Source of the DNA: Clostridia bacterium
GTDB lineage: Bacteria; Bacillota; Clostridia; Christensenellales; UBA1242
Reading direction: 5' to 3'
DNA length: 64,000 nucleotides
Assembly: GCA_045654505.1 (NCBI GenBank)
Contig: JAZONM010000005.1
Span: 162,183-226,182 of the forward strand
The position numbers and the translations under genes were made by a program. The notes beneath the pieces are model-generated. The model was not told the origin of the DNA. It searched no databases and was given only the letters and a program-made list of their open reading frames with translations. Numbering within the stretch: position 1 is the stretch's first letter; each line of letters opens with the position of its first letter. Of the stretch, positions 6,001 through 50,185 are shown one piece after another.

Positions 6001-9000
6001 TTGGTAGTAATAACGAATTCTTGTATGATACTTCACAAACACTTGGTAAAAATAGTCATATTACAGGAACTCTACATAATGACAATACCGAAACCACTGA
6101 TTCTGATGGTGGTAATATTATCAATATTCAAGCAGATATCGAGATTCAAAAGGGATATGTATATGCTTCGTACATTACATACAATAAAAAGATTGAATAT
6201 ATCTATAATTCGGTTGTAAATTATGATAAGGCTATAGATATTGTGAATTCAACTGGTGATGTAGGCTGGTCTAATGCTTTACAAACTCTAATCATAGCTA
6301 AAACCGAACAATATATTTATAATTTCTCATCTATGGGCAGTAGTATATTTGATTTAACTTTTGACGAAAGTAAGTATGTAGATAAATTTATGAATACTGC
6401 GTTTGGTACTTCACTAGGAAATGCAGCCGATGTATCAAAATATTGGACTATGATTGCGGATAGTAATTCTGGTCGTCTTGTGCATTCATGGATGTATAAA
6501 GATAAGTATTTTGACACTATACTTGATAATGAGTATAGATATTATGAATATGATGAAGCAAATATAGATGATTTTAGTATTGACTCTATAGATGACCTTG
6601 TCTTATTTAAAGAAAAAGTAAATGCAGGTGAGTTTAGCGGAAATATCCAATTAAACACCGATATTGATCTTGGTGCAAAACTTTGGATGCCAATCGGAAC
6701 TGAAACCAATCCATTTACTGGCACATTTGATGGCAGTGGTCATACAATATCCAATATGCGTGTGATGGGAAATACATACAATGGTCTATTTGGCGTGACT
6801 AAAGATGCAACAATCAAAAATCTACGTATTAAGGACGCACAAGTAGCAGGGTATGGAAATTTGAGTCGAAGTGCAGTACTTATTGGTCAATCCATAGACA
6901 GAATTTCACTTGAAAAAGTAGGTGTGGAAGACGCACATATAGCCGGCAACAATATTGCTGGACTTATAGGTTCTTTGAATAGAAGTGAAGATGAAATAAT
7001 TCCACAAGTTTCTTTCCAACATGTATATGCTGTCGTTGCGGAAGGCGAATCGAGCATGGAAAACCAATATGCAATGCTTGTAGGAGACACTATTGATGCA
7101 ACAATTGATCCAGGTATTGAGATGGGTGAGGTGTATGCTGCAGAGATTAGAGTTGGTAAGGGCAACTCAACCTATGAAATAAATGAATATAGTAGCTACT
7201 TTTTGAGCACGAAGACTATTGACATGGTGAGCAATAATTCGATATATCTATTGACTAGAAATAGTGGACACTTAACAAAAGCAGTTAAAAAATCCAAATA
7301 TGAGATGCAGACCGAAATGCTGGAAGGCTTTAGTTGGTCTGAAGTATGGGTAAGAGAAAGTACCAAAAACTACGGTCTTCCTACTCTAAAATTTGAGATT
7401 GGTTATTGGATTGATGAAGGTAAAATATTGTCTGAGCTTGAAGAAGGTGAAATTTACAAAGGCATGTATGACGGAGCGGAGGTAGAATTGATAGCCCCTT
7501 CGTATGATACAGATACTAAAACATATACGATAATATATCCACATCATCTTGCGTGGGTAGCATATCAAGTAAATGAACTTAGCAAAAACTTTGAAGGCGA
7601 ACGCATTTTGATTACCCAAGCACTTGATCTATCGAGCATGATCTGGTCGCCAATAGGCACTGAAGAGGTACCATTTAAGGGTACGGTGTCAAGTGAATAC
7701 ATGGAAGACACAAAATCCACTCTTAAAATCTCAAATATGACTACATATGGTAATTATATGACTACATTTACAGAAGTGGAAGATTTAAATACTGGTTTTG
7801 TATTTGAAAGTCGTGATGTAAATACTACATATGGTGGTCTATTTGGTAATTTTGAAGGCACGCTAGAAAGCAATCAAATAAAATTTGACAATGCTGTGGT
7901 ACACAATACTGAGTATGCCGGAGTATTGGCGGGTAATATTAGCACAACAAGAGAATCATTGCCTATCACCACATTACAAAGTATTGATATAAAAGGTCAT
8001 GCAAATGTCGGTGGCCTTGTGGGTATGATGGTACAAACAGACGGTAGTAAGATAACAAAAATAACATGCAATGTGATAGATGCAGTAATTGCAGTATACA
8101 CTGCTACTAATGAAGAGCATGGACTATATGTCGGAGGTGTAGTCGGACACGGCACTAGAGTAAAAATACAAAATTCTACAGTACTAAATGCAAGTATTTC
8201 TGCAAAGGTAGACGAAAATGTAGATTATGAAAATGGTATTTTTGCAGGCGGTATTGCAGGATATGTAGATAGTAGCAAGATATTCAATTGCCAATTTGGT
8301 GACGATGCGGCTAGTAGTTATGGTTATGCCACATTGACATCCAATGGCAGTGCTGGCGGTATTGTCGCGGAAATGAAAGATACCGAATTATACGCATGTC
8401 TATCTTTCGGCCGCGTATATGGTAGACAATATGTCGGAGGCATAGTCGGACATATGACTGGAAGCAAGTCAATCGTTCAGAACGTGACAATGCAAGGTGA
8501 AATAGATTCGGATTATCACGAGGATGTGGACACATATACTGGCGGAATTGTCGGATATATGGAAAATGGATACTTGTCAGAGGCTGTATTTATTGGAAGC
8601 CTTCCTTCAGTAGCTGACAATTATATTTATGCTCACGAACTTGGTGGTGTAGTGGGTTATCATAAAGCCGGAAATATTGTAAACATATACAGCGACGTAC
8701 TTGATTTTTCTACGAAATCATATACATACTCCAATATATATGGTTATTTAGTGGGAAAAACAGACGCAATAGGTTCGATTTCTATGGCGGTACTTCAATG
8801 TGACAATAATTGTGCTTTTAATCTTTTAGGACAATGGAGTTGTAAATATACAGGTCTAATTGGAAACAAAGTCGGTGCTGAATATTCGCTTACCAAGCTT
8901 GCAAGTACAATTACTACATCATGCAGGATACATAATCTACATGATAATGATAGAAATTTTGTAGATTACTCTGATGGATATAAGGCATATTTGTATTCAT

Positions 9001-34788: not shown

Positions 34789-35541
34789 TTAGTTGTTGTA
34801 ATCTCTAAGAATATTGCGTGCAAGATCAGAGGCGATTATTCTATTTGAAGCATAGAAGTCGCGTCTATCAAATCTTAGTGTAACTTCTTTAGCGATTTTG
34901 TATGGTACTTCACGATAAAAATTCTTTTCGCGTTGCATTTGTGGGCTTAAAGCAAACTCTTTTATAAGGCTTGCAAGATATGCATTGAATATAGTGTCTA
35001 GTGCATTCACGACTTCTTTGTATTCAATACATTCGATAAATGCATTGGCAATCATTTTTTCATTACCATTATGTAGATTTGGGCGATTGCTGATAAAATC
35101 ACACATAATCTCAAACATACTTTTCTTATTGTGTCTGCTGTCATTATAGTTAAAGTCTTTTACAATGCTTGCCACTTTAAAATGAGCATCTATATCGTCA
35201 AATACTGTTTCGACTTTATTTATCATCCCCATACAAATACGTGTACGAGCAAGACCTCTAAGATTTAGTCTGCCGTCTTCAAATATGGTGTAAGAATCCT
35301 CATTATTGAAACGAGTAGCCATCTGAATACCTAGATTAGCAGTTTTGAAAGGGGAGCACACATAGTCTATAAAATACTCTTTTACATTGTCTTTATTAAA
35401 GCTTGACACATTTGCTAATTCAATACACTCATTAAAGACATTGGAAACAACATTTGTTTTGCGCACAAAAAAATCTATTTGCTCATTAAGCAAATACCAC
35501 ACGCTGTCTATTGCTAAGCTTTCTAATTTTTTTGTTTCCAT
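34789..35541 (-). CDS. Hypothetical protein P1 (250 aa)
   Basis: Long ORF with its own promoter and terminator. Weak SD (AAGGAAAA). No motif recognised and no TM segment. Confidence 0.65.
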   Translation of the reverse strand: METKKLESLAIDSVWYLLNEQIDFFVRKTNVVSNVFNECIELANVSSFNKDNVKEYFIDYVCSPFKTANLGIQMATRFNNEDSYTIFEDGRLNLRGLARTRICMGMINKVETVFDDIDAHFKVASIVKDFNYNDSRHNKKSMFEIMCDFISNRPNLHNGNEKMIANAFIECIEYKEVVNALDTIFNAYLASLIKEFALSPQMQREKNFYREVPYKIAKEVTLRFDRRDFYASNRIIASDLARNILRDYNN

Positions 35542-35690: not shown

Positions 35691-36452
35691 TTACATAACT
35701 TTTTCATTTATTATGCTGCTTCTGATTTTAGTCGCAGTCGTATTTTTGTACTCTTCTGGAGTATAAGCAAGTCCGTGTTTTTTTGTGGAAATTTCAGATA
35801 TTTTCGAATTGAATTCGTGTAGCCAGAATGAAATATTTACTGAGGGATATTGTCTAGCCAATTGTCTACATTGTCTGCGATTCAATTGCTGTTGTTGGGC
35901 ATATGATTCCAGTTGTTGTTTCACAACTTCCTCGCTGCAGTATTCTAGGTCGAAAATATTTATTGTACTGCTTCTTTGTTTGTCTATTCTGGTATATATA
36001 TCTTTTGTGTATTCATTTATGGTAGTGTTTTTCAATTTCTCAAGTTTTACCAAAACAGCATTTGGAGGGAGATTGTCCCAATTGTGTTCGCTTGCTATTG
36101 CGCTTGCAATACGCTTTCTTTCGTTGAGATTGTGTGCAAATTCCAATGAAGTAATGCTATTGATTATACTTTTAATGTCTTTTGTGTAGTATTGACTAAA
36201 TAAAAAAGAACAATCATATTTTAAACCAAACATTCTTTCTACTTTTGTACTTTTATCAATACTTGCTGCTATATCTATCAATTGAGAATGTATTGATGTC
36301 TTGAGAAATTTATCATCGTGTGGTGTGTTTGTAGTGGAGGAAAGAGCCTTTTTGACAATGGCATAAATGTCTTGGGTGTACTTGTGAATATATTCTGATA
36401 TTAAATTGTCGCAAAGTAAAATTGTGTTTTCTACTAGATTATTGTCAGCCAT
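35691..36452 (-). CDS. Hypothetical protein P2 (253 aa)
   Basis: Perfect AAAGGAGGAAAAAATG start context on the minus strand and its own terminator. Contains a Q-rich segment (QQQQLNRRQCRQLARQ). No motif recognised. Confidence 0.7.
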   Translation of the reverse strand: MADNNLVENTILLCDNLISEYIHKYTQDIYAIVKKALSSTTNTPHDDKFLKTSIHSQLIDIAASIDKSTKVERMFGLKYDCSFLFSQYYTKDIKSIINSITSLEFAHNLNERKRIASAIASEHNWDNLPPNAVLVKLEKLKNTTINEYTKDIYTRIDKQRSSTINIFDLEYCSEEVVKQQLESYAQQQQLNRRQCRQLARQYPSVNISFWLHEFNSKISEISTKKHGLAYTPEEYKNTTATKIRSSIINEKVM

Positions 36453-36628: not shown

Positions 36629-36778
36629 ACACACGTAAATTGAATATTTCGTTTCGCCAAAGACAGCAAGTACAAAGGTAAATCTTGCCGAGGTAAGTAG
36701 TAAGTGATAATTATATCTCTACGCTTATTTGGCGTGGAGATTTTCTTTTTATAATCACATTTAAAAAGGAGAAATATA
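36629..36778 (+). promoter_or_regulatory. Probable ribosomal protein L10 leader (autoregulatory 5' UTR) with a terminator-type attenuator
   Basis: ~150-nt UTR ending in the hairpin atctctacgc / gcgtggagat (36715-36741) plus ttttcttttt, just before the rplJ SD. This is the layout of the Firmicute L10 leader. The covariance model was not run. Confidence 0.55.
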
Positions 36779-37756: not shown

Positions 37757-38083
37757 TCACTCTTTTATTCGTGTTATGCACTCTGCGGTATTGGAGCCGT
37801 GTTGGAGAGTGATGCCATTGCTATAACACTTACGGTCATTATTGAAAAGACAATTGACGCAGTCGCAGTGGATGTCGACTTTTTTGTTGTGTCGATAGGG
37901 ATGGACAGTGGGTTCTTTTTCAAACATATCGCGGCTTACATCTTGTTGTTGGCGAGGAGGGAGTGTGTCATCATATCTCTCATATGATGCACACATTCCG
38001 TCATTAGTGACTGCAATCCCTTTGCATACACAACAGTATGCGTCGTTGTTTTTACAGTTTAGTTGTCTACATTTCAAATCCAT
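37757..38083 (-). CDS. DUF1540-like Cys-rich protein (two Cys-rich half-repeats)
   Basis: C-x4-C-x7-CC-x-C..C in the N-terminal half and C-x-C-x2-C-x8-C..C in the C-terminal half resemble the DUF1540 pattern. 108 aa. Confidence 0.55.
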   Translation of the reverse strand: MDLKCRQLNCKNNDAYCCVCKGIAVTNDGMCASYERYDDTLPPRQQQDVSRDMFEKEPTVHPYRHNKKVDIHCDCVNCLFNNDRKCYSNGITLQHGSNTAECITRIKE

Positions 38084-38112: not shown

Positions 38113-38141
38113 TTGACTTTTAAGCGGTGTTTTATTACAAT
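38113..38141 (+). promoter_or_regulatory. Promoter of rplI
   Basis: TTGACT at 38113-38118, 17 nt, TACAAT at 38136-38141. It shares TATTGACTTTTA(A)GCGG with the rpmG promoter. Confidence 0.55.
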
Positions 38142-38164
38142 ATAATTGTAAATATGGAGGAAAT

Positions 38165-38605
38165 ATGAAGGTTGTATTATTGAAAGATTTGAAAGGTAAG
38201 GGTAAGAAAGGTGATGTTATCAATGTAAATGATGGCTATGCTCAAAACTACTTACTTCCAAATGGTTATTGTGTGATTGGTAATGCTAGCAATCTAAACG
38301 AGGCAAAACAAGCAAAAGCGGCTAGTGCTTATCACGAAGAGCAAAACCAAATCAAGGCGCGTGAGCTTGGTGCAAAGCTGAAGAATATTAGTATCGTACT
38401 TGCTGTAAAGTGTGGAGCAAATGGTAAAATATTTGGCAGTGTAACAAACAAAGAAGTGTCAGCGGAACTTGAAAAACAAGGTTTTGATATTGACAAAAAG
38501 AAAATCGAGATGCCGCTTATAAAAAACACTGGCGAATATACCGCAAAAATAAAATTATACGCAAATATTTCTACTGATATAAAAGTCCAAGTAGTGGAAG
38601 GATAA
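38165..38605 (+). CDS. rplI: 50S ribosomal protein L9
   Basis: MKVVLLKDLKGKGKKGDVINVNDGYAQNYLLP.. with GGAGG SD. Confidence 0.95.
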   Translation: MKVVLLKDLKGKGKKGDVINVNDGYAQNYLLPNGYCVIGNASNLNEAKQAKAASAYHEEQNQIKARELGAKLKNISIVLAVKCGANGKIFGSVTNKEVSAELEKQGFDIDKKKIEMPLIKNTGEYTAKIKLYANISTDIKVQVVEG

Positions 38606-38616
38606 TACGAAAAGAT

Positions 38617-39132
38617 ATGTTTAAGTTTAAAAATGTGAGGGGGGGGGGTAACCTCCTAGAAAAAAATACTTACAATAGAATGATTGATGAAATAAAATTT
38701 GATTCTAGTGTAGTAATAGGTGATAAGCAATATAAGGTGCTATCAAAAACCTTCTATTCTAATTTAAATAATCGTCAATTAAAGTATGTAAAATTTGTAT
38801 TAAATAACGATAAAATATTGGTTGTTAATCCTGAAAGAGAATCAATATTTCTTGGGGAAGTGGTAGATGACTTCTATAAAGACGAATACTTCCCAAAAAG
38901 TTTTGAATATGAAGGCAAAACATTTGTAGAGTTTGAAAAAGATATCCAAATCGTAAATAAAATTGAGTTTGGCGAACCAGCTGAATGTGAAGGTGAGTGT
39001 GTTTGGGTAGATTATGTATGTCAAGAAGACAAAACTATATGTATTGACATGGCGTATATCTATAGAGATAAAAAACGTGCTGATATTTTGGCAAAATGGA
39101 TTGATATAAAAACAATAAAAGTAAAGAATTAA
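38617..39132 (+). CDS. Hypothetical protein, tentatively DUF4178-like, with a G10 tract in codons 8-11
   Basis: 171-aa ORF starting 11 nt after rplI. Repeated F.Y.GK.F...W.DY-type beta-rich pattern and an acidic Cys-rich stretch, EPAECEGECVWVDYVCQEDKTIC. No obvious SD. The family assignment is from memory only. Confidence 0.5.
   Translation: MFKFKNVRGGGNLLEKNTYNRMIDEIKFDSSVVIGDKQYKVLSKTFYSNLNNRQLKYVKFVLNNDKILVVNPERESIFLGEVVDDFYKDEYFPKSFEYEGKTFVEFEKDIQIVNKIEFGEPAECEGECVWVDYVCQEDKTICIDMAYIYRDKKRADILAKWIDIKTIKVKN
38638..38647 (+). repeat. Homopolymeric G10 tract inside the coding sequence
   Basis: gtgaGGGGGGGGGGtaacc. It encodes R-G-G-G. It is the longest G/C run I saw in the window. Confidence 0.95.
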
Positions 39133-39159
39133 GATAGTGTAAGAAGAGGGGTTGTGGAT

Positions 39160-39543
39160 ATGACAAAATTAACATTAAAACAAGTAGAATATATCAAATT
39201 GGCAGAAAAATTGGTATTTACTACTGCAAGTAAAGATGCAAAACCTCGTAGTATCTATGTGATGCCTAGCAGAATTGAAGAGGACAGGATTATCTTATCA
39301 AACATTCAAATGGATAAGTCTCTGACAAATATATTGGAAAACAATAATTGCTTTTTAAATGTTTATCTTCCCGATGAGGACGATTTGCAAATAAAAATCG
39401 AGGGCAAAGCAGAAGTGGTAGATAATGGCTCTTTGTATGAAGAAATAAAGGAATATGAGGAAAGTGAAAATTTGCCACCTGAGCTTAAGGTAAATTCGAT
39501 TATTATAGTAAAAGTAGTCAGTGTCGAAGAGACAAATGGTTGA
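39160..39543 (+). CDS. Pyridoxamine 5'-phosphate oxidase-fold (flavin-binding split-barrel) family protein
   Basis: ..KLVFTTASKDAKPRSIYVMP..DRIILSN.....SLTNILENNNCFLNVY.. resembles small PNPOx-like proteins. ATG 39160 lies 8 nt after GAGGGG; GTG 39154 is also possible. Confidence 0.6.
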   Translation: MTKLTLKQVEYIKLAEKLVFTTASKDAKPRSIYVMPSRIEEDRIILSNIQMDKSLTNILENNNCFLNVYLPDEDDLQIKIEGKAEVVDNGSLYEEIKEYEESENLPPELKVNSIIIVKVVSVEETNG

Positions 39544-39552
39544 TAATTTATT

Positions 39553-40653
39553 ATGGAGGGGTATATGACAGACAATTTGAATACGATAGCTTTTCACATA
39601 ACAGATAATTGCAATGCTCATTGCCCGATGTGTTATGAAAATGCTCAGCAAAATTTGGACCTTAATGGCGAATTGGACACATTGAAAAAGATTGCACATA
39701 ATGCGATTAGATATGGAAAAGTGGAAAATTTTTTAATGGTAGGTGGCGACCCATGTGCATTTCCACACCTTATTGAATTGATGCGATATATCAAGGATGA
39801 GGGTGAGAGGTATGGTGTAGATACTTTTATTGAAGTTTTGTCCAATACGCATGATTACAGAGAAAACGGTAAAATTGTGCCAATGGAAGAGGTTGTAAAG
39901 TTGGTGGACAAAATGAATATTACTGTTCATGGTTCTACGCCTTTACTTCATGATATATTTAATGGTGTGCCAGGATCGTATAATCATATGATAGAGAATG
40001 TGAGAAAGTATATTGAATGTAAAGGGGACGATCAGTCTGTCGGACTTACTTTAAATATAATGCCACACACTATATATTCTTTAGAGAACATTATTCTTAA
40101 TACAAACAGGGATTTGGGTGGAAATATTGTTGATTTGTGCATACAAAGAATTGCACCAGTAGGAAGAGCTGAAGGAAATCTTGAGTTTTTGATTGAAAAA
40201 CCCGATGTAAATGTTTTTATGCCGGTATTGGAAAAAGCGTATCAATCGGGAATGGGTATCGATATCTGTGATTGTTTTCCGTATTGCTCAGTAAAAGATG
40301 AATATCGTCATTTGCTTCCTAAAGGCGGTTGTCAATGGGGAAGAAATATTTTATCTGTGCAAAGAAATGGTGATATGACGCGTTGTGCGCTGTCTTCTAG
40401 AGTTATTGGAAATATGGTAAAACTTGACAGCGAAGAAAAGTATTTTGATTGGTGGGAAAACTGTCCAGAATTGGAGTCTTTTAGAAGAGGTGCTCATTTG
40501 AATGAAGCCTGCAAACAATGCAAACAAGTAGATGAATGCGGCGGAGGGTGTTTGATGGCTCGAGATACAGGTGACCCATACAGATTTGGTGCTGAAAATG
40601 TCACTACAGGAAGAGATTATTTAGCTACTACAGATTATAAAGACGGAAAATAA
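39553..40653 (+). CDS. Radical SAM enzyme with a C-terminal SPASM/twitch-like Cys cluster
   Basis: CNAHCPMC (CxxxCxxC) at nt 39610-39633. C-terminal cysteines are CDCFPYC, GGCQWG, RCAL and ACKQCKQVDECGGGC. The start is more likely ATG 39565, which follows GGAGGGG. Confidence 0.85.
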   Translation: MEGYMTDNLNTIAFHITDNCNAHCPMCYENAQQNLDLNGELDTLKKIAHNAIRYGKVENFLMVGGDPCAFPHLIELMRYIKDEGERYGVDTFIEVLSNTHDYRENGKIVPMEEVVKLVDKMNITVHGSTPLLHDIFNGVPGSYNHMIENVRKYIECKGDDQSVGLTLNIMPHTIYSLENIILNTNRDLGGNIVDLCIQRIAPVGRAEGNLEFLIEKPDVNVFMPVLEKAYQSGMGIDICDCFPYCSVKDEYRHLLPKGGCQWGRNILSVQRNGDMTRCALSSRVIGNMVKLDSEEKYFDWWENCPELESFRRGAHLNEACKQCKQVDECGGGCLMARDTGDPYRFGAENVTTGRDYLATTDYKDGK

Positions 40654-40682
40654 AAAGATTGCCTAAAGCAATCTTTTTTTTA
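40652..40682. terminator. Terminator after the radical SAM gene
   Basis: Stem aaagattgc, loop ctaaa, stem gcaatcttt, then T9. The upstream A-run gives partial bidirectionality. Confidence 0.85.
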
Positions 40683-40739: not shown

Positions 40740-41477
40740 TTAGTCGTTGTTTCGATGTACAAATACTATGAAAAAACGAAGAAGTTCTAAAATGCTTACT
40801 ACAAATGATGCTAGATAAGTAAGAGCTGCTGCACTTAGCATCTTTTTACATTCTGCAGTTTCTTCAGTATTTAATATACCACTTGATTGAAGTATTTTTG
40901 TAGCGCGTCGACTTGCATTGTATTCTACTGGAAGAGTGACTAAATTGACCAAAACAGACAAACCGAAGAATATTAGACCTGCCCATACAAAATAATTGCC
41001 AATTGCGCCATTCATGCTTCCAAAACCGAATATAAATCCAAGTATTACAAGAGGCCAAAGCAATTTTGATGATATATTACTGCAAGTGATAGCAAATGTA
41101 CGAAGTTTGATTGGGGCATAATTGGATTTGTATTGTAATGCATGTCCTACTTCATGAATTGCGATTCCAAGGGCTGCTACTGTGTCATTTGAAAAAGAGT
41201 TTTTTGATAGAGATATTACTTTATTCTTATGGTCATAGTAGTCGGACATATTGTCGCCTTGGACTTGTATGGTTATGTCTTGCAGACCTGCGGTATCAAG
41301 CAACATACGTGCGACTTCGCCACCTGTTTTGCCTGATTGTACTTTTATCTTGTTGCATCTGGCAAATGTCATTGAGACTCTTGATTGAGCATATATGGCA
41401 AGCAGCACTCCCGGAATAAGTATTATACCCATTAGGTAATATTCGAAATAAGTGCCTGCAAGTAACAAATTAAACAT
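40740..41477 (-). CDS. YugP-family membrane zinc metallopeptidase (copy 1)
   Basis: HEVGHALQ (HExxH) plus N- and C-terminal TM segments. GGGAG SD. Confidence 0.8.
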   Translation of the reverse strand: MFNLLLAGTYFEYYLMGIILIPGVLLAIYAQSRVSMTFARCNKIKVQSGKTGGEVARMLLDTAGLQDITIQVQGDNMSDYYDHKNKVISLSKNSFSNDTVAALGIAIHEVGHALQYKSNYAPIKLRTFAITCSNISSKLLWPLVILGFIFGFGSMNGAIGNYFVWAGLIFFGLSVLVNLVTLPVEYNASRRATKILQSSGILNTEETAECKKMLSAAALTYLASFVVSILELLRFFIVFVHRNND

Positions 41478-41486
41478 TTTATCTCC

Positions 41487-42182
41487 CTATCTAAAAATTC
41501 TGAAAAGTTTTCTGGCGGTAATAGTAAAATCGTCAAATAAACCAACAATATATGTTTGTGCTGCGATTTTTAAAAATCTTTTTACTTTCGGAACTTCATT
41601 TTTATTGATTATTTTGGCATTGGTAAGAAAACGTATTGCGCGTTTGCTTGCGTCAATTTCTACTGGTATTGTAAGTAGTTTGAATAGCGCATGAAGTGCA
41701 AATAAGATACCTGATGAAATGACCATGTTGAGACCAATAGTTTCGGTTGGCCATTTAAATATCATAAAAGCAAGTCCAAAGATTAGCAGTGGTATGATAA
41801 ATCTATTTGTAAAATGTGTGAATACATTAAGCAGATGATTCAATCTGAAAAGAGGCATATTTTCTTTGTCTTGCATAGCGTGTCCAAGCTCATGAGCTAC
41901 TACTGCGCAGCTTGCTATAGATTCGCTTTCGCAGATGTCTTTACTAAGATACAACATCTTTTTTCTACTGCTGTATGCATCAGTAAGGGTGCCACTTACT
42001 AAAGCAAACTCTATATTAAGATTCATATGTTGTTTGCCGTATGCAGCAATGCGTTCACCACTTATACCATTGTCATTTGGTGTTCTTATATATTTTTTGT
42101 AGGCGCTCATTATTCTTCTTCTGGCGCTAAATAACCAAATAAGGAAAAATAAAACAACCCCACCTATTATTAAGTATGTCAT
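41487..42182 (-). CDS. YugP-family membrane zinc metallopeptidase (copy 2)
   Basis: HELGHAMQ and the same TM layout as copy 1. It lies 9 nt upstream of copy 1. AGGGAG SD. Confidence 0.8.
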   Translation of the reverse strand: MTYLIIGGVVLFFLIWLFSARRRIMSAYKKYIRTPNDNGISGERIAAYGKQHMNLNIEFALVSGTLTDAYSSRKKMLYLSKDICESESIASCAVVAHELGHAMQDKENMPLFRLNHLLNVFTHFTNRFIIPLLIFGLAFMIFKWPTETIGLNMVISSGILFALHALFKLLTIPVEIDASKRAIRFLTNAKIINKNEVPKVKRFLKIAAQTYIVGLFDDFTITARKLFRIFR

Positions 42183-42335: not shown

Positions 42336-43256
42336 CTAGTCAAGCAATTGGATTTCTTCAATGTCTTTTATTTTGCTATTTTCAATTTCGAAGGTGTAAG
42401 ATTTGTACCCTTCAGTTGTTAGAATAGTGTAATTGTTTTCTCTGGTATATGGATTTGGGAATATTTCTTTTACTTCACCAAAGTAAGATTTTAGGTGGTC
42501 GTTTGATACGAAAGCATCTTGAAGATAACTCTTTGCTAAGTTGAAATCATTAAGTTTTATGGCTTCTATAAATGCATATGGTATTGCTTTGATAATATTT
42601 GTCGTTCTGGGAGTTTCGTCAATATATATTGAATAATTGTCAACAAAACCCGTCTTAATGTCATATTCATACACTATACCATGTTTTGCGATGTTTTGTG
42701 TATTTTTCATGAGTTTTATTTTGTCCTTGTCTTTTTCCACTATTTCAAACTCATCATCAATTATTGGTTTATTGTTTTCTAAGTCAAATATTAGATAGTA
42801 CAAATTGTTGTTTTTTAGTTTTCCATATAGTATCAAATGATTTTCTATTGTTGTGTTGCATGACGTAAGTCGCTGGATTTTCTTTGTATAGCTATATTTC
42901 TCGTTTGTTATATTTATGTATGTAAGACTATTTGAAAAAACCTTGATATAATGTTGGCCATATCTTTTATCAATAAGTATTGTGTCTTCCATTTTTTCCA
43001 TTTTTAATGTTGGGATAAAATAGATGTCAGTATGATTGTTGTGAAACGGAATTTTTAAAATATTGTCGTTATTTTTTATATCTATCAAAGAAAATGAGTA
43101 GGGGAGAAACTCGTCGTTGGTTGGCATGCATGATACATAGCAATTTTTCTTGACTGTGATGTCAAGAGTGTTGCTTGGAGAAACTATATATGTTTTTATT
43201 CCGTTGATTGAAATTCTTGCTTTTTCGTTGCATTTTATATGTATATATTTTTCCAT
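42336..43256 (-). CDS. Hypothetical protein (306 aa, N/K/I-rich, beta-rich by eye)
   Basis: AAGGTGA SD upstream of the ATG at 43256. No motif recognised. Confidence 0.6.
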   Translation of the reverse strand: MEKYIHIKCNEKARISINGIKTYIVSPSNTLDITVKKNCYVSCMPTNDEFLPYSFSLIDIKNNDNILKIPFHNNHTDIYFIPTLKMEKMEDTILIDKRYGQHYIKVFSNSLTYINITNEKYSYTKKIQRLTSCNTTIENHLILYGKLKNNNLYYLIFDLENNKPIIDDEFEIVEKDKDKIKLMKNTQNIAKHGIVYEYDIKTGFVDNYSIYIDETPRTTNIIKAIPYAFIEAIKLNDFNLAKSYLQDAFVSNDHLKSYFGEVKEIFPNPYTRENNYTILTTEGYKSYTFEIENSKIKDIEEIQLLD

Positions 43257-43649: not shown

Positions 43650-46600
43650 ATGTTAAAAATCATTTATTCAAGGACCAATAAGGACAGTGCTGAATACTTG
43701 CTAAAGAGTCTTAAAGGTCGTGACAAAACTCAAAAACATATTGTTTTTACTCCTGATAGAGCGAATCTTATATATCAAAACCGTATATTTGATTTGATAA
43801 ATGAGGAGTGCCTTTTTGATGTCGATGTGACTACTATTAGTAGATTTGCATCCCGTTTTGCGAATGATGAAAAAGTTTTGTCAAAACAAGGTGGAGTAGC
43901 CATTGTCAAGAAGATTTTGATTGAAAAACAGAATGAATTTTTGAGTTTTGGTAAAAGTGTGAAATATAAGGGTTTTGCGTTAAGCTTATTTGAAACCCTA
44001 TGTATGTTTAAGTCGTGTAGAATAGCTCCTGAAAATATTTTGGAAACAAAAAATGGTGTGCTAAACAATAAATTACACGATATTAAGATTGTTTATCAAG
44101 AATATGAAAAGTTTTTACAAAGTGATTATACTGATGCATTTAATATATTGACTTTGTGTGCTAGCAAGATAAATAAATCCTTTAGTGATACCAATTTTTA
44201 TTTTTTGGGTTTTGAGGATTTTACAAAACAAGGATTTTTCCTTATAGAAAAAATGATGAAGTATGCCAATAATGTTTTTGTTGGGACTGCTTATGGTAAG
44301 AAAGGGCTAAACAACAATTTTAATATATATGATAATGCGATTGTTTCTGCTTTGATTGACATTGCAAAAACAAATGGTGTTAAGTATGATATGGTGGTTG
44401 CAAAGTGCAATGATGGTGGTTTGCAAAATGTTTTGAAAAACAATCTATTCGCATTTGCTTTAAAACACGGAAATGAAAGTCAGGATATTAAAGTTTTTTC
44501 GTATGATAATAGAATCGATGAAGTGAGAAATACTATCAATTATATACGTTATCAAGTTCAGAAAAACAACCTAAGGTATAGCGATTTTACCATACTTGTT
44601 CCGTCTATAAAATCGTACAAAACGCAATTAAAACAAGTGTTTTCAGAATTTAATATGCCTTTTTATCTCGATGAAAGTCAAAATTTTGGAGATAATCTGC
44701 TTGCAAGATATGTAATGAGTATTGTCAAAATTGTTGATGATTATAGTGAGATATTTAATATAATAAAGACTCCGTTTGTTGATATAGAAGAAAGCAAGAT
44801 AAATGATTATCTTGATCGTGTTGAAAAGTTTGGTTTGATTGGTAAGTCTCTTTTAGATTGTGATGAGATACAATGTGAGCGTCTAAAACTTCTAAAAGAA
44901 TATATTGATAAGAGTCGAAAAGTAAAGACTATAGGTGGCTATATTGATGTTTTGAGAGACGCTATAGAAAACTTTGCGTTTTCTGGCTTGGATGCTTATC
45001 AAAATGCTTTATATGATAGAGGTTTGATTGAGGAATATAAAAAAGTACCGCAATGTATTAATATTTTGACAAGGACCTTAGACCAGGTTGATAATATTTT
45101 GCATGATTATGAGTGCACGCATAAAAACTTTGTTGAGATTATTGAGAATTATGTTGAAAATATCAATTTGACACTGCCTCCAGTTGTTGTGGATAGTGTT
45201 TTTGTCGGAGAAATCGAAACGTCTTTCGTTCAAGACACAAAATATCTTTTTGTTCTGGGGTGTAATGAGGGTGTAGTGCCAGCTTATTCTTCGGAGTTGG
45301 GCCTTATTAGTGATAAGGAAATAGGCCAAATGCCTCAAAATTATCGTCTTAATCCTACTATTGCAGAAATCAATAAAAGAAAGAAATTTAAGGTTTTTGA
45401 AAATCTTGTTTCGTTTGAAAATAAGATATATTTATCTTTTCTTACCACATCTGATGGTGGTAAAGCTTTTCCGTCGTCTTTTATAGAGGATGTGCAAATA
45501 TTGTTTGACGCAAACATAATTGATGGGAGTCTTTGGCTACATAATACATATTCCAATCTTGATGGCTTAAATGAGTCCTTGGTTGAGTTTGATAATTTGA
45601 GCCAAACTTGTGTGGATTATATTTTTGCAAAACAATTGAAAAATTATGATTTTCTTAAAGAAAATAAAGGGTATATTGAATATTTAAGTTTACTTAGCAA
45701 ACTTGCGGATAAGTCTGTGCTTGAAGGACACAATTTCAAAAACGATATCAAGAACATTTCAGAAGAGTTGTTTTTGACTTCAGGACAAATCGGTGTTAGT
45801 GAAATTGAAAGATATAATAGCTGTCCGTACAAACATTTTGTCGAATATGGCTTGAAATTAAGAAACAAAACACGTAGCAATTTTGAAGCAGTGGATAACG
45901 GACAAATTATACATGAATTCTTAAAACTCATAGTACCAAAAATCACTAAAAAACAAGATGTGAATATAAATGAAATGACTCAAAGCATATTGAGTGAAGT
46001 ATTGAATCGTTCAGAATATCAACATTTGGTAAACAATGAAATCAATAAAGTTAATGTCAAGGCTCTTTACAATGAGTGTGTACGCATAGTCGAGGGTGTA
46101 AAGTATCAATTGGACAATAGTAGTTTTTCACCTGTTCGTTTTGAGCAACCTTTCAAGTATTCTGTTGGCGGAGTATCGGTGGGCAATAAAGATATTGTAC
46201 TTGTGGGAGTTGTGGATAGAATTGATGCTTATAAAGACCGATTTACAATCATTGACTACAAAACTGGTTCGACTAAGATGGAAAGTTTTGATGAGGTACA
46301 AAGTGGTGAAAAGTGGCAATTGATTGTCTATATGTATGTTGTGGGAAAAGGTGATTTAAAACCTGCAGGTTGTTATTATATGCCTATCAAAAATGATTTC
46401 ACAACAAAAGAAAAATACTCTTATCAGTTGCAAGGCATAACTAATAAAGACAGAAATGTTATATCTGCGCTTGATAATAATTTGGACAAGCAAAATCACT
46501 CAAGCAAACTATTAAAACTTGAAACAAGCGACAAAGGATTGAAGGAAAACTCATACTATAAAAACATGTGTCTAAACGATGATGAGATGTCGGCACTTAA

Positions 46601-46811
46601 TTTGTGGGTGATGGATAATGTGCAAATTAAAATAAAAGAGATACTGTCTGGAAATGTAAAACCTTATCCTTTGATGAGTGGTGGAAGGTGTGCATGTGAC
46701 TATTGCAAATATATCGGACTTTGCAATTTTAATAAAGCATATGGTAATGCATTTAATATATCTAAAAAATGCAAAAATTTGTCAGAACTTTTGTCGGAGG
46801 TGGATGAATGA
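43650..46811 (+). CDS. addB: Helicase-nuclease AddAB, subunit AddB (RexB-like, no Walker A)
   Basis: C-terminal nuclease with Fe-S cysteines (SCPYKHF ... CACDYCKYIGLC) and DYKTG. It overlaps addA by 4 nt (ATGA). Confidence 0.88.
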   Translation: MLKIIYSRTNKDSAEYLLKSLKGRDKTQKHIVFTPDRANLIYQNRIFDLINEECLFDVDVTTISRFASRFANDEKVLSKQGGVAIVKKILIEKQNEFLSFGKSVKYKGFALSLFETLCMFKSCRIAPENILETKNGVLNNKLHDIKIVYQEYEKFLQSDYTDAFNILTLCASKINKSFSDTNFYFLGFEDFTKQGFFLIEKMMKYANNVFVGTAYGKKGLNNNFNIYDNAIVSALIDIAKTNGVKYDMVVAKCNDGGLQNVLKNNLFAFALKHGNESQDIKVFSYDNRIDEVRNTINYIRYQVQKNNLRYSDFTILVPSIKSYKTQLKQVFSEFNMPFYLDESQNFGDNLLARYVMSIVKIVDDYSEIFNIIKTPFVDIEESKINDYLDRVEKFGLIGKSLLDCDEIQCERLKLLKEYIDKSRKVKTIGGYIDVLRDAIENFAFSGLDAYQNALYDRGLIEEYKKVPQCINILTRTLDQVDNILHDYECTHKNFVEIIENYVENINLTLPPVVVDSVFVGEIETSFVQDTKYLFVLGCNEGVVPAYSSELGLISDKEIGQMPQNYRLNPTIAEINKRKKFKVFENLVSFENKIYLSFLTTSDGGKAFPSSFIEDVQILFDANIIDGSLWLHNTYSNLDGLNESLVEFDNLSQTCVDYIFAKQLKNYDFLKENKGYIEYLSLLSKLADKSVLEGHNFKNDIKNISEELFLTSGQIGVSEIERYNSCPYKHFVEYGLKLRNKTRSNFEAVDNGQIIHEFLKLIVPKITKKQDVNINEMTQSILSEVLNRSEYQHLVNNEINKVNVKALYNECVRIVEGVKYQLDNSSFSPVRFEQPFKYSVGGVSVGNKDIVLVGVVDRIDAYKDRFTIIDYKTGSTKMESFDEVQSGEKWQLIVYMYVVGKGDLKPAGCYYMPIKNDFTTKEKYSYQLQGITNKDRNVISALDNNLDKQNHSSKLLKLETSDKGLKENSYYKNMCLNDDEMSALNLWVMDNVQIKIKEILSGNVKPYPLMSGGRCACDYCKYIGLCNFNKAYGNAFNISKKCKNLSELLSEVDE

Positions 46812-49800
46812 GTAAGTTCAAACCAAATGAAGAACAACTTGAATTTATAAAAACCTTAGACAAAAACATTCTTGTATCCGCAAGTGCAGGTAGCGGGAAA
46901 ACCTCGACAATGGTCGAAAAGGTGTTACAAATTGTCAAAAACGGCACAAATATTGACAATTTACTCATTATCACATATACAGTTGCGTCTGCAAATGAAA
47001 TGCGTCAAAGACTTTATCATTCTATTGTTGATGAGATAAGAGAGTGTGAAGATGAAACGCAAATAGCGTACTTATACTCACAATTGGATAGTCTTAGCAA
47101 TTGTGATATTGGCACGATACACTCTGTTTGTAAAAAAATAATTTCTAAGTATTTTTATGTGATAGATCAAGATACAAATTTTAGTATTGCTGAGCAAAGT
47201 GATTATTTATATTTAAGTGCTATTAAAAATGTTTTTAGGAAATATATTGTATCTGAAGACGATAATTTCTTTCAATTGTATGAGAGCTATAATAAGAAAA
47301 GAAATGAAAAAGCCTTGGTAGAGATAATAAAAACATTACATAACTTTTTCAATAGTAAGGTAAATGTGAGTGATTGGAAAAATCATGTACTTGAAAAGTG
47401 TTATGATTTGAATGTAAAGACCAATATTTGTGCTTGTTATGTTTTGGAAAAATCTAAAAATATTGCACATGAATTGATTAAAGAATTTAAAAACTTGCTT
47501 GAAATTGATATTGATGTTAAATATATCAAGCTTATAAATAATCGGTTGGATTTTCTTAATTCAATTTCGACCGCATCCGACTATAATCACTTATTGAAAG
47601 TAATAGGGGATGCTTCTTTCATGACGAAAGTGGCTACCACTAAATTGGGCGGTGAGTATTGTGATTGGGTTGAGAAGTATGAGAAAGCAAACGCGAATTT
47701 CAAAACTTTTAAAGATGAAATGCAGGCACTTTCAAAACTTCAATGGAATATTGATGAAATGTCTGTGGTTAGGGATATGACTAAGACATTGTTTGAAATT
47801 GTTGATGATATAGAAGTGGAATATAAGAGACTAAAACAAGACAAAAATCTTCTTGATTTTAGTGATTTGGAGCATAAAACTTTAGAAATATTAAATGCAA
47901 GCGAAGATGTTTGTAAAGAATTGAGAGAAAAGTACGCTTATATTTTTGTAGATGAATATCAAGATATAAATGAATTACAAGAAGCCATAATAGACAAAAT
48001 AAAGGATACTGGCAATCTCAATCTTATTGGTGATGTAAAGCAAAGTATTTTTGCTTTCAGACTTGCAACTCCAAAGCTTTTTATAGAAAAATATAACAGC
48101 TATCCAAATAGTGGATGTGATAGGGTGATTAAGTTTAATCAAAACTTCCGCAGTAAAAACAATATATTACAGTTTGTTAATTGGGTGTGTAATGAGGTCA
48201 TTACAAAAAACACTATTGGGATTGATTATAGGAAAGATGCTCAATTGGTTTTTCCTGAAGTGAAAGGTGAAGATAGGGATAGTGTAGTAGAAATTAGTAT
48301 AATAGATAAGAAAAAAGATGGAGACGATGATCTTGAGAGCGATGAAAAAGAAGCCCTTCTTATTGTCAAGAAAATAAAAGAAATTCTTCAAAAGACGTAT
48401 ACTACAACAGCTGGTGACCACTACTATACATACAAAGACATTGCAATAATCTCTAGGAGCAAAACTGCTCTTGTTGGTAAGATTATTTCTGCATTAAAAC
48501 AATATAATATTCCGTGCAATGTTAAATACAAAAAAGATATATTTAATTCGAATGGAGTGCAAGTTGTTTATTCATTCTTGAAACTTCTATACAATACTAA
48601 TGATGGATTGTCGTTGTCGATACTATTGAAAAACTTATTTGGTTTGAATGAAAATGATCTTGCAAAAATAAAGAAAATCTCGAATGAGGATTTTGCTACA
48701 TGTTGCGTTTTGTATGGAGAAAGTGGCGATGATTTGAGAGTGAAAGAAAGTGTGCTAAAAATGTATGATTTAATTAAAGAAAACACTTTTAAAATGTCAT
48801 ATCTTTCCCTTTATGAAGTATTAAGAAGTTTTGCTGACAATATAAAGATTAAATATTTGTCGTATACTGATGGAATCGACAATATATCACAAATTGACGA
48901 GTTTTTGCGACTTATTGACAATAAATTATACGAACACGACATAAAGTCTTGTATTGAATACTTGAGTGAAATTGAAGGTAGTAAGACAGAGATTGGTGAT
49001 TGTGAAGGAAATGATGCTGTTACTATTACTACAATTCATAGCAGTAAAGGACTAGAATACAAAGCCGTTATTTTCTGTGGTCTTGGTGGGAATTTAGGAA
49101 TAAATAAAAATACTAGCGATATTGTCGTGTCAGACACTTTTGGTGTTGGATTGCAATATCTTGATGTTGTTCATAGAATAAAAAGCGACACTATTGTAAA
49201 ACAAGCTTGTCTTTATGCAAATGAGAGAGAGCAAGTGAATGAAGAACTAAGACTTTTGTATGTTGCGCTTACACGTGGTATGCAGTATTTGGTTTTGACG
49301 GGCGTATATAATGTAGAAAATATTTTGCATCCATCTACTAAAGGGATTTATAGTGGAAGAAAATATTTTGATTGGATTTTTAGAGGGCTTTCTTCGCTTG
49401 ATAGATCAAAATTTGGTAATCTTAAAAATTTCACAATCTATGAAAACAAACTTTCATCGGCTAAAGTTGAGATAGATGCTCTCGAAAGTGAGATTGTCAT
49501 GGAGCCAAGTAAAATTGAATTTTCTACAGTATCTGATAGTCTTCTTGAAAGAGTGTCTAAAAATCTAGCATGGTCATATCCTTACGAAAATCAAATATCT
49601 CTTCCGATTAAAAACAGTGTGAGTAGTATTTTGAAAGATGATAAGGATTATGAGAATAGTGTAGATGCTTTTAAAGAATTGTCTTTGAGTGAAAGGATAT
49701 CTCCAAGTGAGAGTATAGAGAAGGGTAATGCATACCATCGAGTAATGCAAGAAGTGGATTTTATTAAAGACAATGATTTGGAACAAATTCTGTCAGAGTT

Positions 49801-50185
49801 TGATAAAAATAAATATGTCGATAAAAAGAAAGTCAAAATATGTATAGATACAATAAAATGTCTTGCAAGTAATTGTATTGTAGAGAAAGAAAAACAATTT
49901 TTGATGAAAGTTAGACACTCAGATATTGTGGATGGTGGACAAGAGCAAAAAATTTTGGTGCAAGGAATTGTGGATTTGTTTCTGATAGATGATGAAGGCA
50001 TAACACTTATCGACTACAAAACAAATAAAGTAAGCACGCTTGAGAATCTCGCAAAAATGTATGCGACTCAGATGAGACTCTATGCTCTAGCTCTGGAAAA
50101 AGGCTATGGTAAAAAGGTAAAAAATATATACCTTTACTCCTTTGATAAAGATTGTCTAGTAGATATGAAAAATTACATAAAATAG
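46808..50185 (+). CDS. addA: Helicase-nuclease AddAB, subunit AddA
   Basis: UvrD-type motifs ASAGSGKT and DEYQD. C-terminal RecB-type nuclease (GIVDLF..IDYKT). Confidence 0.93.
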   Translation: MSKFKPNEEQLEFIKTLDKNILVSASAGSGKTSTMVEKVLQIVKNGTNIDNLLIITYTVASANEMRQRLYHSIVDEIRECEDETQIAYLYSQLDSLSNCDIGTIHSVCKKIISKYFYVIDQDTNFSIAEQSDYLYLSAIKNVFRKYIVSEDDNFFQLYESYNKKRNEKALVEIIKTLHNFFNSKVNVSDWKNHVLEKCYDLNVKTNICACYVLEKSKNIAHELIKEFKNLLEIDIDVKYIKLINNRLDFLNSISTASDYNHLLKVIGDASFMTKVATTKLGGEYCDWVEKYEKANANFKTFKDEMQALSKLQWNIDEMSVVRDMTKTLFEIVDDIEVEYKRLKQDKNLLDFSDLEHKTLEILNASEDVCKELREKYAYIFVDEYQDINELQEAIIDKIKDTGNLNLIGDVKQSIFAFRLATPKLFIEKYNSYPNSGCDRVIKFNQNFRSKNNILQFVNWVCNEVITKNTIGIDYRKDAQLVFPEVKGEDRDSVVEISIIDKKKDGDDDLESDEKEALLIVKKIKEILQKTYTTTAGDHYYTYKDIAIISRSKTALVGKIISALKQYNIPCNVKYKKDIFNSNGVQVVYSFLKLLYNTNDGLSLSILLKNLFGLNENDLAKIKKISNEDFATCCVLYGESGDDLRVKESVLKMYDLIKENTFKMSYLSLYEVLRSFADNIKIKYLSYTDGIDNISQIDEFLRLIDNKLYEHDIKSCIEYLSEIEGSKTEIGDCEGNDAVTITTIHSSKGLEYKAVIFCGLGGNLGINKNTSDIVVSDTFGVGLQYLDVVHRIKSDTIVKQACLYANEREQVNEELRLLYVALTRGMQYLVLTGVYNVENILHPSTKGIYSGRKYFDWIFRGLSSLDRSKFGNLKNFTIYENKLSSAKVEIDALESEIVMEPSKIEFSTVSDSLLERVSKNLAWSYPYENQISLPIKNSVSSILKDDKDYENSVDAFKELSLSERISPSESIEKGNAYHRVMQEVDFIKDNDLEQILSEFDKNKYVDKKKVKICIDTIKCLASNCIVEKEKQFLMKVRHSDIVDGGQEQKILVQGIVDLFLIDDEGITLIDYKTNKVSTLENLAKMYATQMRLYALALEKGYGKKVKNIYLYSFDKDCLVDMKNYIK

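Follow-up and report, generated by a model that had tools for sequence, protein, structure and literature searches.

The window analyzed here, a 64,000-nucleotide (nt) stretch of contig JAZONM010000005.1 from the Clostridia bacterium assembly GCA_045654505.1 (positions 162,183 to 226,182), encodes on its forward strand a radical S-adenosylmethionine (SAM) enzyme with a SPASM domain (hereafter rSAM; 39553 to 40653), directly preceded by the gene for a small split-barrel protein of the PNPOx fold (PNPOx-A; 39154 to 39543). We consider it probable that these two genes, one for the rSAM/SPASM enzyme and one for a split-barrel protein of ~125 to 135 amino acids (aa), constitute the functional unit and that their products are coupled through a cofactor. 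The pairing of enzyme and partner extends over distant taxa from gut and rumen, takes every orientation, and in one case is a fused polypeptide; judged from sequence and gene neighborhoods, the two represent an uncharacterized SPASM family defined by its split-barrel partner. The two genes that precede them in the window, rplI (ribosomal protein L9) and ORF171 (an open reading frame [ORF] of 171 aa), are very probably incidental neighbors of the pair. Literature searches for a pairing of rSAM/SPASM enzymes with PNPOx or split-barrel proteins found no description of one.

We retrieved 18 distinct loci via the rSAM itself, from metagenome contigs and GTDB representative genomes, spanning Bacilli, Clostridia, Christensenella, Candidatus Enterousia (Alphaproteobacteria), and Saccharibacteria; retrieval was pattern based, so that the counts are lower bounds, and the loci are phylogenetically nonindependent. 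A split-barrel gene is adjacent or fused to the rSAM gene at 12/18 loci. At eight of the 18 (pattern A) the partner is PNPOx-A, which is divergent from rSAM in L001 and L004, upstream of it in the window and in L008, overlapping and downstream in L005 and L016, and separated from it by one gene, for a cytidylyl/adenylyl-transferase, in L007. The last pattern A locus, L022, encodes a 523-aa fusion protein (P0026), seen in two samples, with a PNPOx-A domain C-terminal to the SPASM domain. At four further loci (pattern B) another split-barrel protein, PNPOx-B, is encoded immediately downstream of rSAM; it is 134 aa long, matches PF01243 (E = 1.8e−5), and has no BLAST similarity to PNPOx-A. The genes flanking the pair differ between lineages, and among ~27 rSAM loci no third gene recurrently accompanies it, with deaminase, SPOUT methyltransferase, and YgjV-like genes recurring at two to three loci each. 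The original prediction, an earlier reading of the window's sequence, had proposed a trio of ORF171, PNPOx-A, and rSAM linked to rplI, and had suggested asking across genomes whether the three genes co-occur: rSAM and a split-barrel gene do, whereas rplI and ORF171 stand beside rSAM in the window's species only (1/18 distinct loci), so that neither trio nor quartet holds as a conserved cassette. Its hunch that the PNPOx-fold protein matters is strongly borne out by the same loci.

At five of the 18 loci (pattern C; L011 [1695 to 7299], L013, L014, L015, and L018) rSAM is followed by one or two adenylating enzymes resembling PaaK and F390 synthetase and then by a second radical SAM protein, which is RaSEA-like (208 bits for TIGR01210 against a cutoff of 212); a GNAT gene is present in three of the five (L014, L015, and L018), and L012 shows none of patterns A, B, and C. 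Pattern C, in which rSAM belongs to one clade and heads an operon, looks like an uncharacterized small-molecule or nucleoside-modification cluster. Nucleotide-handling neighbors are also scattered among the other loci, with the nucleotidyltransferase in L007, a CobC-like phosphatase after the L022 fusion, and NUDIX genes near a distant homolog in L020, and taken with the PaaK/RaSEA/GNAT genes of pattern C they mildly favor a small-molecule or nucleotide-like substrate over a peptide, although their conservation is too low to point to a particular one. A distant rSAM/SPASM homolog (31% identity) in L020 (252 to 5227) and L021 lies near a methyltransferase, two NUDIX-domain proteins, an ElyC/SanA-like protein, and a CYTH/class IV adenylate-cyclase-like protein, and the metagenome-assembled genome MGBC127997 holds this distant homolog plus PNPOx-B on a separate contig (L057). 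The hosts of rSAM are uncultured gut and rumen bacteria with reduced genomes, Saccharibacteria among them; since such hosts have few dedicated accessory genes, the pair likely serves a specific metabolic need.

The rSAM protein (ORF of 366 aa; 362 aa from the probable start, ATG 39565) matches the radical SAM model PF04055 with 52.1 bits (gathering cutoff 29.5) and the SPASM model TIGR04085 with 28.7 bits (cutoff 27), and scores just below the cutoff of the SPASM model PF13186 (20.9 bits against 21.5). It reaches no NCBIfam equivalog cutoff: the best model is GeoRSP with 61.2 bits against 400, the models for PqqE, MftC, AhbC/D, NirJ, HxsC, ScmE/F, StsB, PapB, SbtM, and the tungsten-cofactor maturase give 22 to 51 bits against cutoffs of 265 to 650, and for the sactipeptide and ranthipeptide maturase models it is far under the cutoffs. 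In a search of the rSAM profile against PDB sequences only the SPASM region of rSAM (residues 245 to 334) finds a match, to PqqE (6c8v; E = 2.9e−7), the only solved structure detectable by sequence; PqqE itself differs, with 44.8 bits for TIGR02109 against a cutoff of 381 and no PqqA, PqqD, PqqB, or PqqC at the window rSAM. Assignment to a defense system (prokaryotic viperin, pVip) was rejected, the PADLOC match being confined to residues 11 to 86, a generic cluster-binding segment, at 35 bits. A word-index search of 5.8e9 proteins yields 34 clusters of rSAM homologs, nearly all metagenomic and unnamed. The protein is thus a genuine SPASM-type enzyme outside every characterized family tested, which agrees with the earlier reading of a SPASM-type Cys cluster in an enzyme matching no characterized family.

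An alignment of 22 rSAM homologs (A1) supports this placement at the level of single residues. In the radical SAM cluster motif CxxxCxxC (CNAHCPMC, 39610 to 39633), C27 is invariant and C20 and C24 are kept in at least 90% of the homologs; C68, within GGDPC, is invariant as well, and so are the SPASM auxiliary-cluster cysteines C245, C260, C278, C320, C323, C329, and C333 (40285 to 40551), spaced as C260-X12-G-X4-C278 and C320-X2-C323-X5-C329-X3-C333. Three cluster sites are predicted in the protein. No Cys is conserved after C333 in the alignment, so that the family departs from the full eight-Cys SPASM form of the anSME type; conserved there instead are GDPY (340 to 342) and D355, which we infer only as candidate non-Cys cluster ligands. 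In anSME, the final Cys ligates auxiliary cluster II, the second of two auxiliary clusters, and an external redox partner, thought to be flavodoxin, is needed for electrons passing via these clusters. The window rSAM resembles anSME/AtsB and other SPASM enzymes that do not act on ribosomally made peptides that are modified after translation (RiPPs) in having a radical SAM core followed by a SPASM domain with no N-terminal RiPP recognition element (RRE). It differs from anSME in that no anSME model is among its NCBIfam matches, no sulfatase gene lies nearby, a conserved counterpart of the final Cys is missing after C333, and its family has a dedicated, sometimes fused, split-barrel partner. One homolog, P0033 (L007, 6001 to 7281), alone among the members ends in a C-terminal tail of Cys-Gly repeats, SCGGNCGGKCGGNCGGKC.

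The partner, PNPOx-A (ORF of 129 aa; 127 aa from the probable start, ATG 39160), scores just below the cutoff of PF01243 (PNPOx_N; 27.4 bits against 28.1, E = 4.7e−6), and its AF2 model, built from a 35-sequence alignment, is a split barrel of the PNPOx-like superfamily SSF50475 with a pLDDT of 93.4, in agreement with the fold proposed for it in the original prediction. Foldseek returns 127 PDB matches at E ≤ 1e−3, of which the top ones listed are all split-barrel or PNPOx-related proteins: HupZ comes first (TM 0.81/0.87), with a PNPOx-related protein from Psychrobacter, FMN-bound YviC, and the FMN-binding protein Swol_0183 among the further top matches, and the Desulfovibrio vulgaris FMN-binding protein scores TM 0.75/0.79. 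The best folds are minimal members of ~120 residues. The only PDB sequence matches are 3in6 (FMN-binding; E = 0.0035) and HupZ (E = 0.016). We rejected PdxH as an identity for PNPOx-A, which has 12.9 bits for TIGR00558 against a cutoff of 180 and 127 to 129 aa against ~200 to 215 residues in solved PNP oxidase chains. Mean column identity in the PNPOx-A alignment is unusually high, at 68%, and no invariant His or Cys-His pair that could act as an axial ligand is found in it. Split-barrel proteins bind FMN, FAD, F420, or heme, so that the fold name alone is no proof of FMN (PMC11602992), and the structural neighbors of PNPOx-A include FMN-bound as well as heme-binding members. We consider a flavin somewhat more likely than heme as its cofactor, given that there is no invariant His axial ligand and that heme or iron uptake genes do not recur nearby.

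PNPOx-A also occurs apart from rSAM in a module found in L024 (1025 to 3770), L026 (365 to 2563), and L050 (around 6001), which consists, in this order, of a NifS-like desulfurase, PNPOx-A, a Cys-containing DUF4178 protein homologous to ORF171, and a 196-aa ferredoxin-like protein with 2×[4Fe-4S], encoded by overlapping or tightly spaced genes, with the PNPOx-A or DUF4178 member missing from some copies. In L024 and L050, PNPOx-A sits between the NifS-like cysteine desulfurase and the ferredoxin-like protein, which links it loosely to Fe-S and redox genes at these two loci.

Under the reading that we prefer, the split-barrel partner would bind a redox cofactor, FMN being the likeliest and heme the main alternative, and would dock near the C-terminal SPASM domain of rSAM; the SPASM end is suggested by the fusion P0026, in which the PNPOx-A domain directly follows the SPASM domain. 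It may then relay electrons to or from the auxiliary Fe-S clusters, or alternatively hand over or take up a small-molecule ligand that is transformed by 5′-deoxyadenosyl radical chemistry. An electron relay or redox step is the role we would put first, with a little less than even confidence; a role as ligand carrier or as consecutive enzyme, with a flavin or tetrapyrrole as the compound acted on, is a more tentative proposal, and some other role carries about the same weight as that one. The substrate would be encoded outside the cassette, a small molecule, cofactor, or trans-encoded macromolecule being likelier than a ribosomal precursor peptide. TYW1, a radical SAM enzyme with a fused flavodoxin domain, is a precedent for a built-in flavin electron donor, to which P0026 may be analogous, although the two differ in the fused domain (flavodoxin versus split barrel), the end of fusion (N terminal versus C terminal), the rSAM class, and the tRNA substrate of TYW1. 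The D. vulgaris FMN-binding protein, Lactococcus lactis YviC, and Streptococcus pyogenes HupZ share fold and size (~120 aa) with PNPOx-A (TM 0.75 to 0.87) but only 14 to 18% identity, and to our knowledge none of them partners a radical SAM enzyme.

Most of the characterized radical SAM/SPASM enzymes mature peptides or proteins, and a few belong to cofactor pathways. A split-barrel protein as the sole conserved companion would point either to a dedicated flavin or heme redox wire to the SPASM clusters or to radical chemistry on a protein-bound cofactor, and neither arrangement is covered by the curated families tested. The second of these, in which the cofactor of the split-barrel protein would be the target of rSAM, with anaerobic radical remodeling or cleavage of a flavin or tetrapyrrole, we regard as unlikely. 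If true, it would either yield a cofactor derivative that is new or serve in salvage or degradation without O2; the two genes would be a mobile module shared by gut and rumen bacteria with reduced genomes, Saccharibacteria among them, and the L007 nucleotidyltransferase, the L022 CobC-like phosphatase, and the L020 NUDIX hydrolases could belong to the same small-molecule pathway. The natural fusion P0026 offers a convenient single-polypeptide target.

Among the rival explanations, a tetrapyrrole system survives best, although we rate it rather improbable: the split-barrel protein would be a heme chaperone like HupZ or HutZ, and the SPASM enzyme would modify or degrade heme anaerobically, as a SPASM-type counterpart of the hutW-hutX-hutZ or chuW loci, or of AhbD or NirJ. 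Operons combining an rSAM with a split-barrel heme protein are an established pattern (hutWXZ), which counts in its favor, as do the rank of HupZ as top structural match (TM 0.81/0.87) and second-best PDB sequence match (E = 0.016), the presence of NirJ2, AhbD, NirJ1, and AhbC among the best, subthreshold, NCBIfam matches of rSAM, and the exposure of the bacteria, anaerobes of the gut, to host heme. AhbC, AhbD, and NirJ are also rSAMs that act on a cofactor and not on a peptide; the window rSAM reaches only 44 to 49 bits for them against cutoffs of 500 to 650, which amounts to generic SPASM similarity. HutW/ChuW, in turn, is HemN-like and not of the SPASM type, and window-type loci are without heme or iron genes in their neighborhood: among ~27 rSAM loci we observe no recurrent TonB receptor, HtaA, Isd, or FecCD-type uptake gene. 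The partner's lack of an invariant His or Cys-His axial ligand weighs against heme as well, FMN-binding proteins score nearly as well as HupZ, and the PaaK/RaSEA/GNAT context of one clade is not heme-like. For operons that join an rSAM to a split-barrel heme protein, related context is given in PMC10404700 and PMC11602992.

Next comes a RiPP maturase whose precursor would be encoded elsewhere or be too short or divergent to detect, with the split-barrel protein as a tailoring oxidoreductase; we consider this quite improbable. It draws on the fact that most characterized SPASM enzymes modify peptides, on subthreshold matches that include GeoRSP, HxsC, ScmF, StsB, and WgkB, and on a 36-aa ORF directly upstream of rSAM in L005 and L006, which is, however, confined to one lineage. 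By profile search, residue 16 is already the start of the radical SAM domain and no other N-terminal domain is found, so that rSAM has no RRE or other peptide-recognition domain, and no RRE or PqqD partner is present either. Within 2.5 kb of rSAM no precursor peptide is conserved between the 18 loci, where recurrent small ORFs are alternate-frame shadows inside PNPOx or PaaK-like genes; the window and L001 leave no intergenic room for a precursor, and no peptidase or exporter is associated. The original prediction, which had reported no short precursor ORF, PqqD-like partner, peptidase, or exporter in the window, is thus matched by both the profiles and the 18 loci.

Adjacency and fusion would equally fit an enzyme and its substrate, and the split-barrel protein could itself be modified by rSAM, which would install a cross-link, a modified residue, or a cofactor in the manner of an activase or maturase; the unusually high conservation of PNPOx-A (68% mean column identity) could be read in the same way. 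We find this a shade less credible again, since most PNPOx-A and PNPOx-B genes are without an rSAM and their products are hence functional unmodified in most genomes, two mutually unalignable subfamilies would both need to be substrates, and a fused substrate would be unusual for a maturase.

Returning to the coupled pair, several observations weigh against it. When searches start from the partners, an rSAM lies within 6 kb at only 2/25 PNPOx-A genome loci, and rSAM is present at only 13/76 PNPOx-B loci (12/75 newly retrieved plus L017); split-barrel proteins are thus widespread without rSAM and could be general proteins. At six of the 18 rSAM loci (the five pattern C loci and L012) no split-barrel gene adjoins rSAM, and the top structural neighbor of PNPOx-A is the heme-binding HupZ. 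The rarity of rSAM linkage among partner loci indicates that the partner has an independent existence. The asymmetric linkage and the six rSAM loci without a partner could even mean that there is no functional link, with rSAM merely tending to land beside split-barrel genes or the arrangement being inherited synteny, which we hold to be very improbable because the pairing involves two unrelated partner subfamilies, all orientations, one fusion protein, and four phyla, with flanking genes that are different in every lineage.

The 12 PNPOx-B-retrieved loci with a directly adjacent rSAM show both gene orders and include renewed finds of L009, L010, and L019, and some of the PNPOx-B-linked rSAMs, overlooked in the initial scan, are copies that have diverged or carry frameshifts. 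At two loci (L054, 6368 to 7458; L098, 6416 to 7312) the rSAM gene beside PNPOx-B is split into two to three frames, as possible pseudogenes or assembly frameshifts. A 287- to 312-aa protein similar to PNPOx-B precedes the 134-aa PNPOx-B in L054 and L055 and precedes rSAM directly in L056, which suggests a duplicated or extended partner. In a neighbor-joining tree of rSAM, which is rough and without support values, PNPOx-B-linked members are basal, PNPOx-A- and PNPOx-B-linked members interleave in the crown, gene order flips repeatedly, and the PaaK/RaSEA clade is nested within the PNPOx-A- and PNPOx-B-linked members. With A- and B-linked members interleaved and their order flipping, the pairing looks ancestral rather than one inherited block, and the tree suggests that it has been reestablished or rearranged several times.

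In the window, the pair stands at the end of a head-to-tail series of four forward-strand genes, rplI (38165 to 38605; 146 aa), ORF171 (38617 to 39132), PNPOx-A, and rSAM, with one promoter-like site before it and one terminator after it. The four ORFs, the motif CNAHCPMC and the C-terminal Cys cluster of rSAM, and the ORF171 string EPAECEGECVWVDYVCQEDKTIC all read as the original prediction had quoted them. In database gene calls PNPOx-A and rSAM each start at the second ATG (39160 and 39565), which in both cases follows a GGAGG-like site, and the intergenic gaps are then 11, 27, and 21 nt; the gaps first reported (11, 21 to 27, and 9 to 21 nt) are correct. The sigma-70-like promoter (TTGACT-17-TACAAT, 38113 to 38141, +; 10/12 consensus positions) lies 5′ of rplI, and a bidirectional intrinsic terminator (40652 to 40678; stem of 11 to 12 bp, T-run on both strands) is common to rSAM and a convergent Zn-peptidase gene; no plus-strand terminator-like site is found between the two, as the earlier report of a single promoter and a single terminator implies. 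By consensus alone such sites are near chance in number (28 promoter-like sites observed against 23.2 ± 5.2 expected from shuffles and 5 terminator-like sites against 2.4 ± 1.8), but the promoter hexamers and the terminator hairpin are both kept in place in a relative, L127 (85% DNA identity). The spacer between rplI and ORF171 folds no better than shuffled sequence (z = −1.06), and we therefore rejected an attenuator or terminator there. The four genes are probably cotranscribed from the rplI promoter as a single transcript. The identical layout recurs in four independent assemblies of the same species from other samples (L129 to L132) and is therefore no assembly artifact, and from 38 to 41 kb no compositional signal of horizontal transfer is seen, GC and skew being as in the surroundings.

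Comparison with the nearest relative, L127/L128 (75% protein identity in PNPOx, 72 to 85% DNA identity in the flanks), separates these genes. There rplJ and rplL are followed by a Cys-rich ORF on the minus strand, then by rplI, PNPOx, a terminator, and two Zn-peptidase genes, without ORF171 and rSAM at the corresponding site. In blastn, the extra DNA of the window against L127/L128 forms two separate blocks, 38617 to 39158 (ORF171) and 39547 to ~40650 (rSAM), so that ORF171 and rSAM are independently variable accessory genes; the comparison is compatible with gain in the window or loss in the relative. The rSAM block occupies precisely the space from the stop codon of PNPOx to a hairpin with homology to the L127 terminator, which in L127 stands directly 3′ of the PNPOx gene. 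The window's lineage would therefore hold an older rplI-PNPOx pair plus two variable extra genes, ORF171 between rplI and PNPOx and rSAM before the terminator. The L9 assignment is secure (134.2 bits for TIGR00158 against a cutoff of 58.6, with both the N- and C-terminal Pfam L9 domains matching), and rplI is absent from every rSAM locus outside the window's species. By this comparison, the rplI-PNPOx adjacency is local synteny of the window's lineage, and the position of rSAM is tied to the PNPOx gene, its link to L9 being positional and not functional.

ORF171 has no Pfam match of its own, DUF4178 (PF13785) giving none at E ≤ 1, and only five close homologs, which start at its residue ~18 to 22; the first 17 to 21 codons are not conserved, and the core begins from about Met22 (ATG 38680). 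A HMMER scan of 1.84 billion representatives expands the family to 95 proteins of ~150 aa, and 29/51 aligned members of the extended family match PF13785 (best 6e−7), so that by transitive homology ORF171 can be regarded as a divergent DUF4178-like protein, the label originally given to it. Its motif CxxxC-x6-C-x6-C (C124, C128, C135, and C142) is specific to this five-member subfamily, the four Cys being absent from the wider DUF4178-like family, and we rejected an Fe-S or zinc site as a family feature since the Cys are not conserved beyond five sequences. The AF2 model is all-beta (pLDDT 93.3) and has no fold counterpart in the PDB (best E = 0.07, TM ~0.2), so that the fold gives no functional lead; literature searches yielded nothing relevant to what DUF4178 does. 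In all three other contexts ORF171 homologs occur without rSAM, near NifS-like and ferredoxin-like genes (L024 and L026) or glycosyltransferases (L025), and in L024 the homolog follows PNPOx-A, as the second ORF171-PNPOx adjacency (n = 2). ORF171 was rejected as a conserved rSAM partner; the 172-aa ORF that follows rSAM in L001 bears no relation to it and is without a Pfam match.

The remaining rival, a four-gene rplI-linked cassette in which rSAM would modify the Cys-rich C-terminal part of ORF171, L9, or a translation component, is the least credible of all and largely refuted by comparative genomics: tight spacing, one promoter-like site and one terminator, an arrangement stable in four assemblies of the species, four invariant Cys in the ORF171 subfamily, and an ORF171 homolog adjoining PNPOx-A in L024 too would fit it, but rplI and ORF171 accompany rSAM at one of 18 distinct loci, ORF171 homologs lack rSAM in 3/3 other contexts, the nearest relative has rplI-PNPOx without ORF171 and rSAM, with two separate indels, and the Cys motif is absent from the wider family. 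The proposal of L9 or ORF171 as the rSAM substrate thus finds no comparative support, and attention shifts from these two to the rSAM/split-barrel pair.

Within the nonconserved 5′ end of ORF171, a G10 homopolymer (38639 to 38648, +) is the only run of at least eight G in the window (0.15 expected at ~33% GC); in three further assemblies of the species it is replaced by GAAGGGG, which is 3 nt shorter and in frame, and the run could reflect true variation between strains, a tract prone to slippage, or an artifact of poly-G sequencing. Between rplL and rplI, a Cys-rich 108-aa ORF on the minus strand (37757 to 38083) has a weak DUF1540 match (E = 0.0015), and an ORF is called at its place in L127, L128, and L129 to L131 (108 aa; 143 aa in L127). 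Convergent with rSAM are two tandem paralogous Zn_peptidase_2 (PF04298) genes on the minus strand (40740 to 41477 and 41487 to 42182), which are kept in relatives without rSAM and are therefore outside the module. An L10 leader (RF00557, 63.9 bits) lies at 36639 to 36755, ahead of rplJ-rplL, and genes for AddB-like (1,053 aa) and AddA-like (1,125 aa) helicase-nuclease proteins lie downstream (43650 to 50185). Three minus-strand ORFs of 250 to 306 aa (34789 to 35541, 35691 to 36452, and 42336 to 43256) have no Pfam match at E ≤ 0.001. Near the start of the window, a giant plus-strand ORF of 3,894 aa (168 to 11852), with a subthreshold GLUG motif as its sole Pfam signal, probably encodes a surface or adhesin-like protein.

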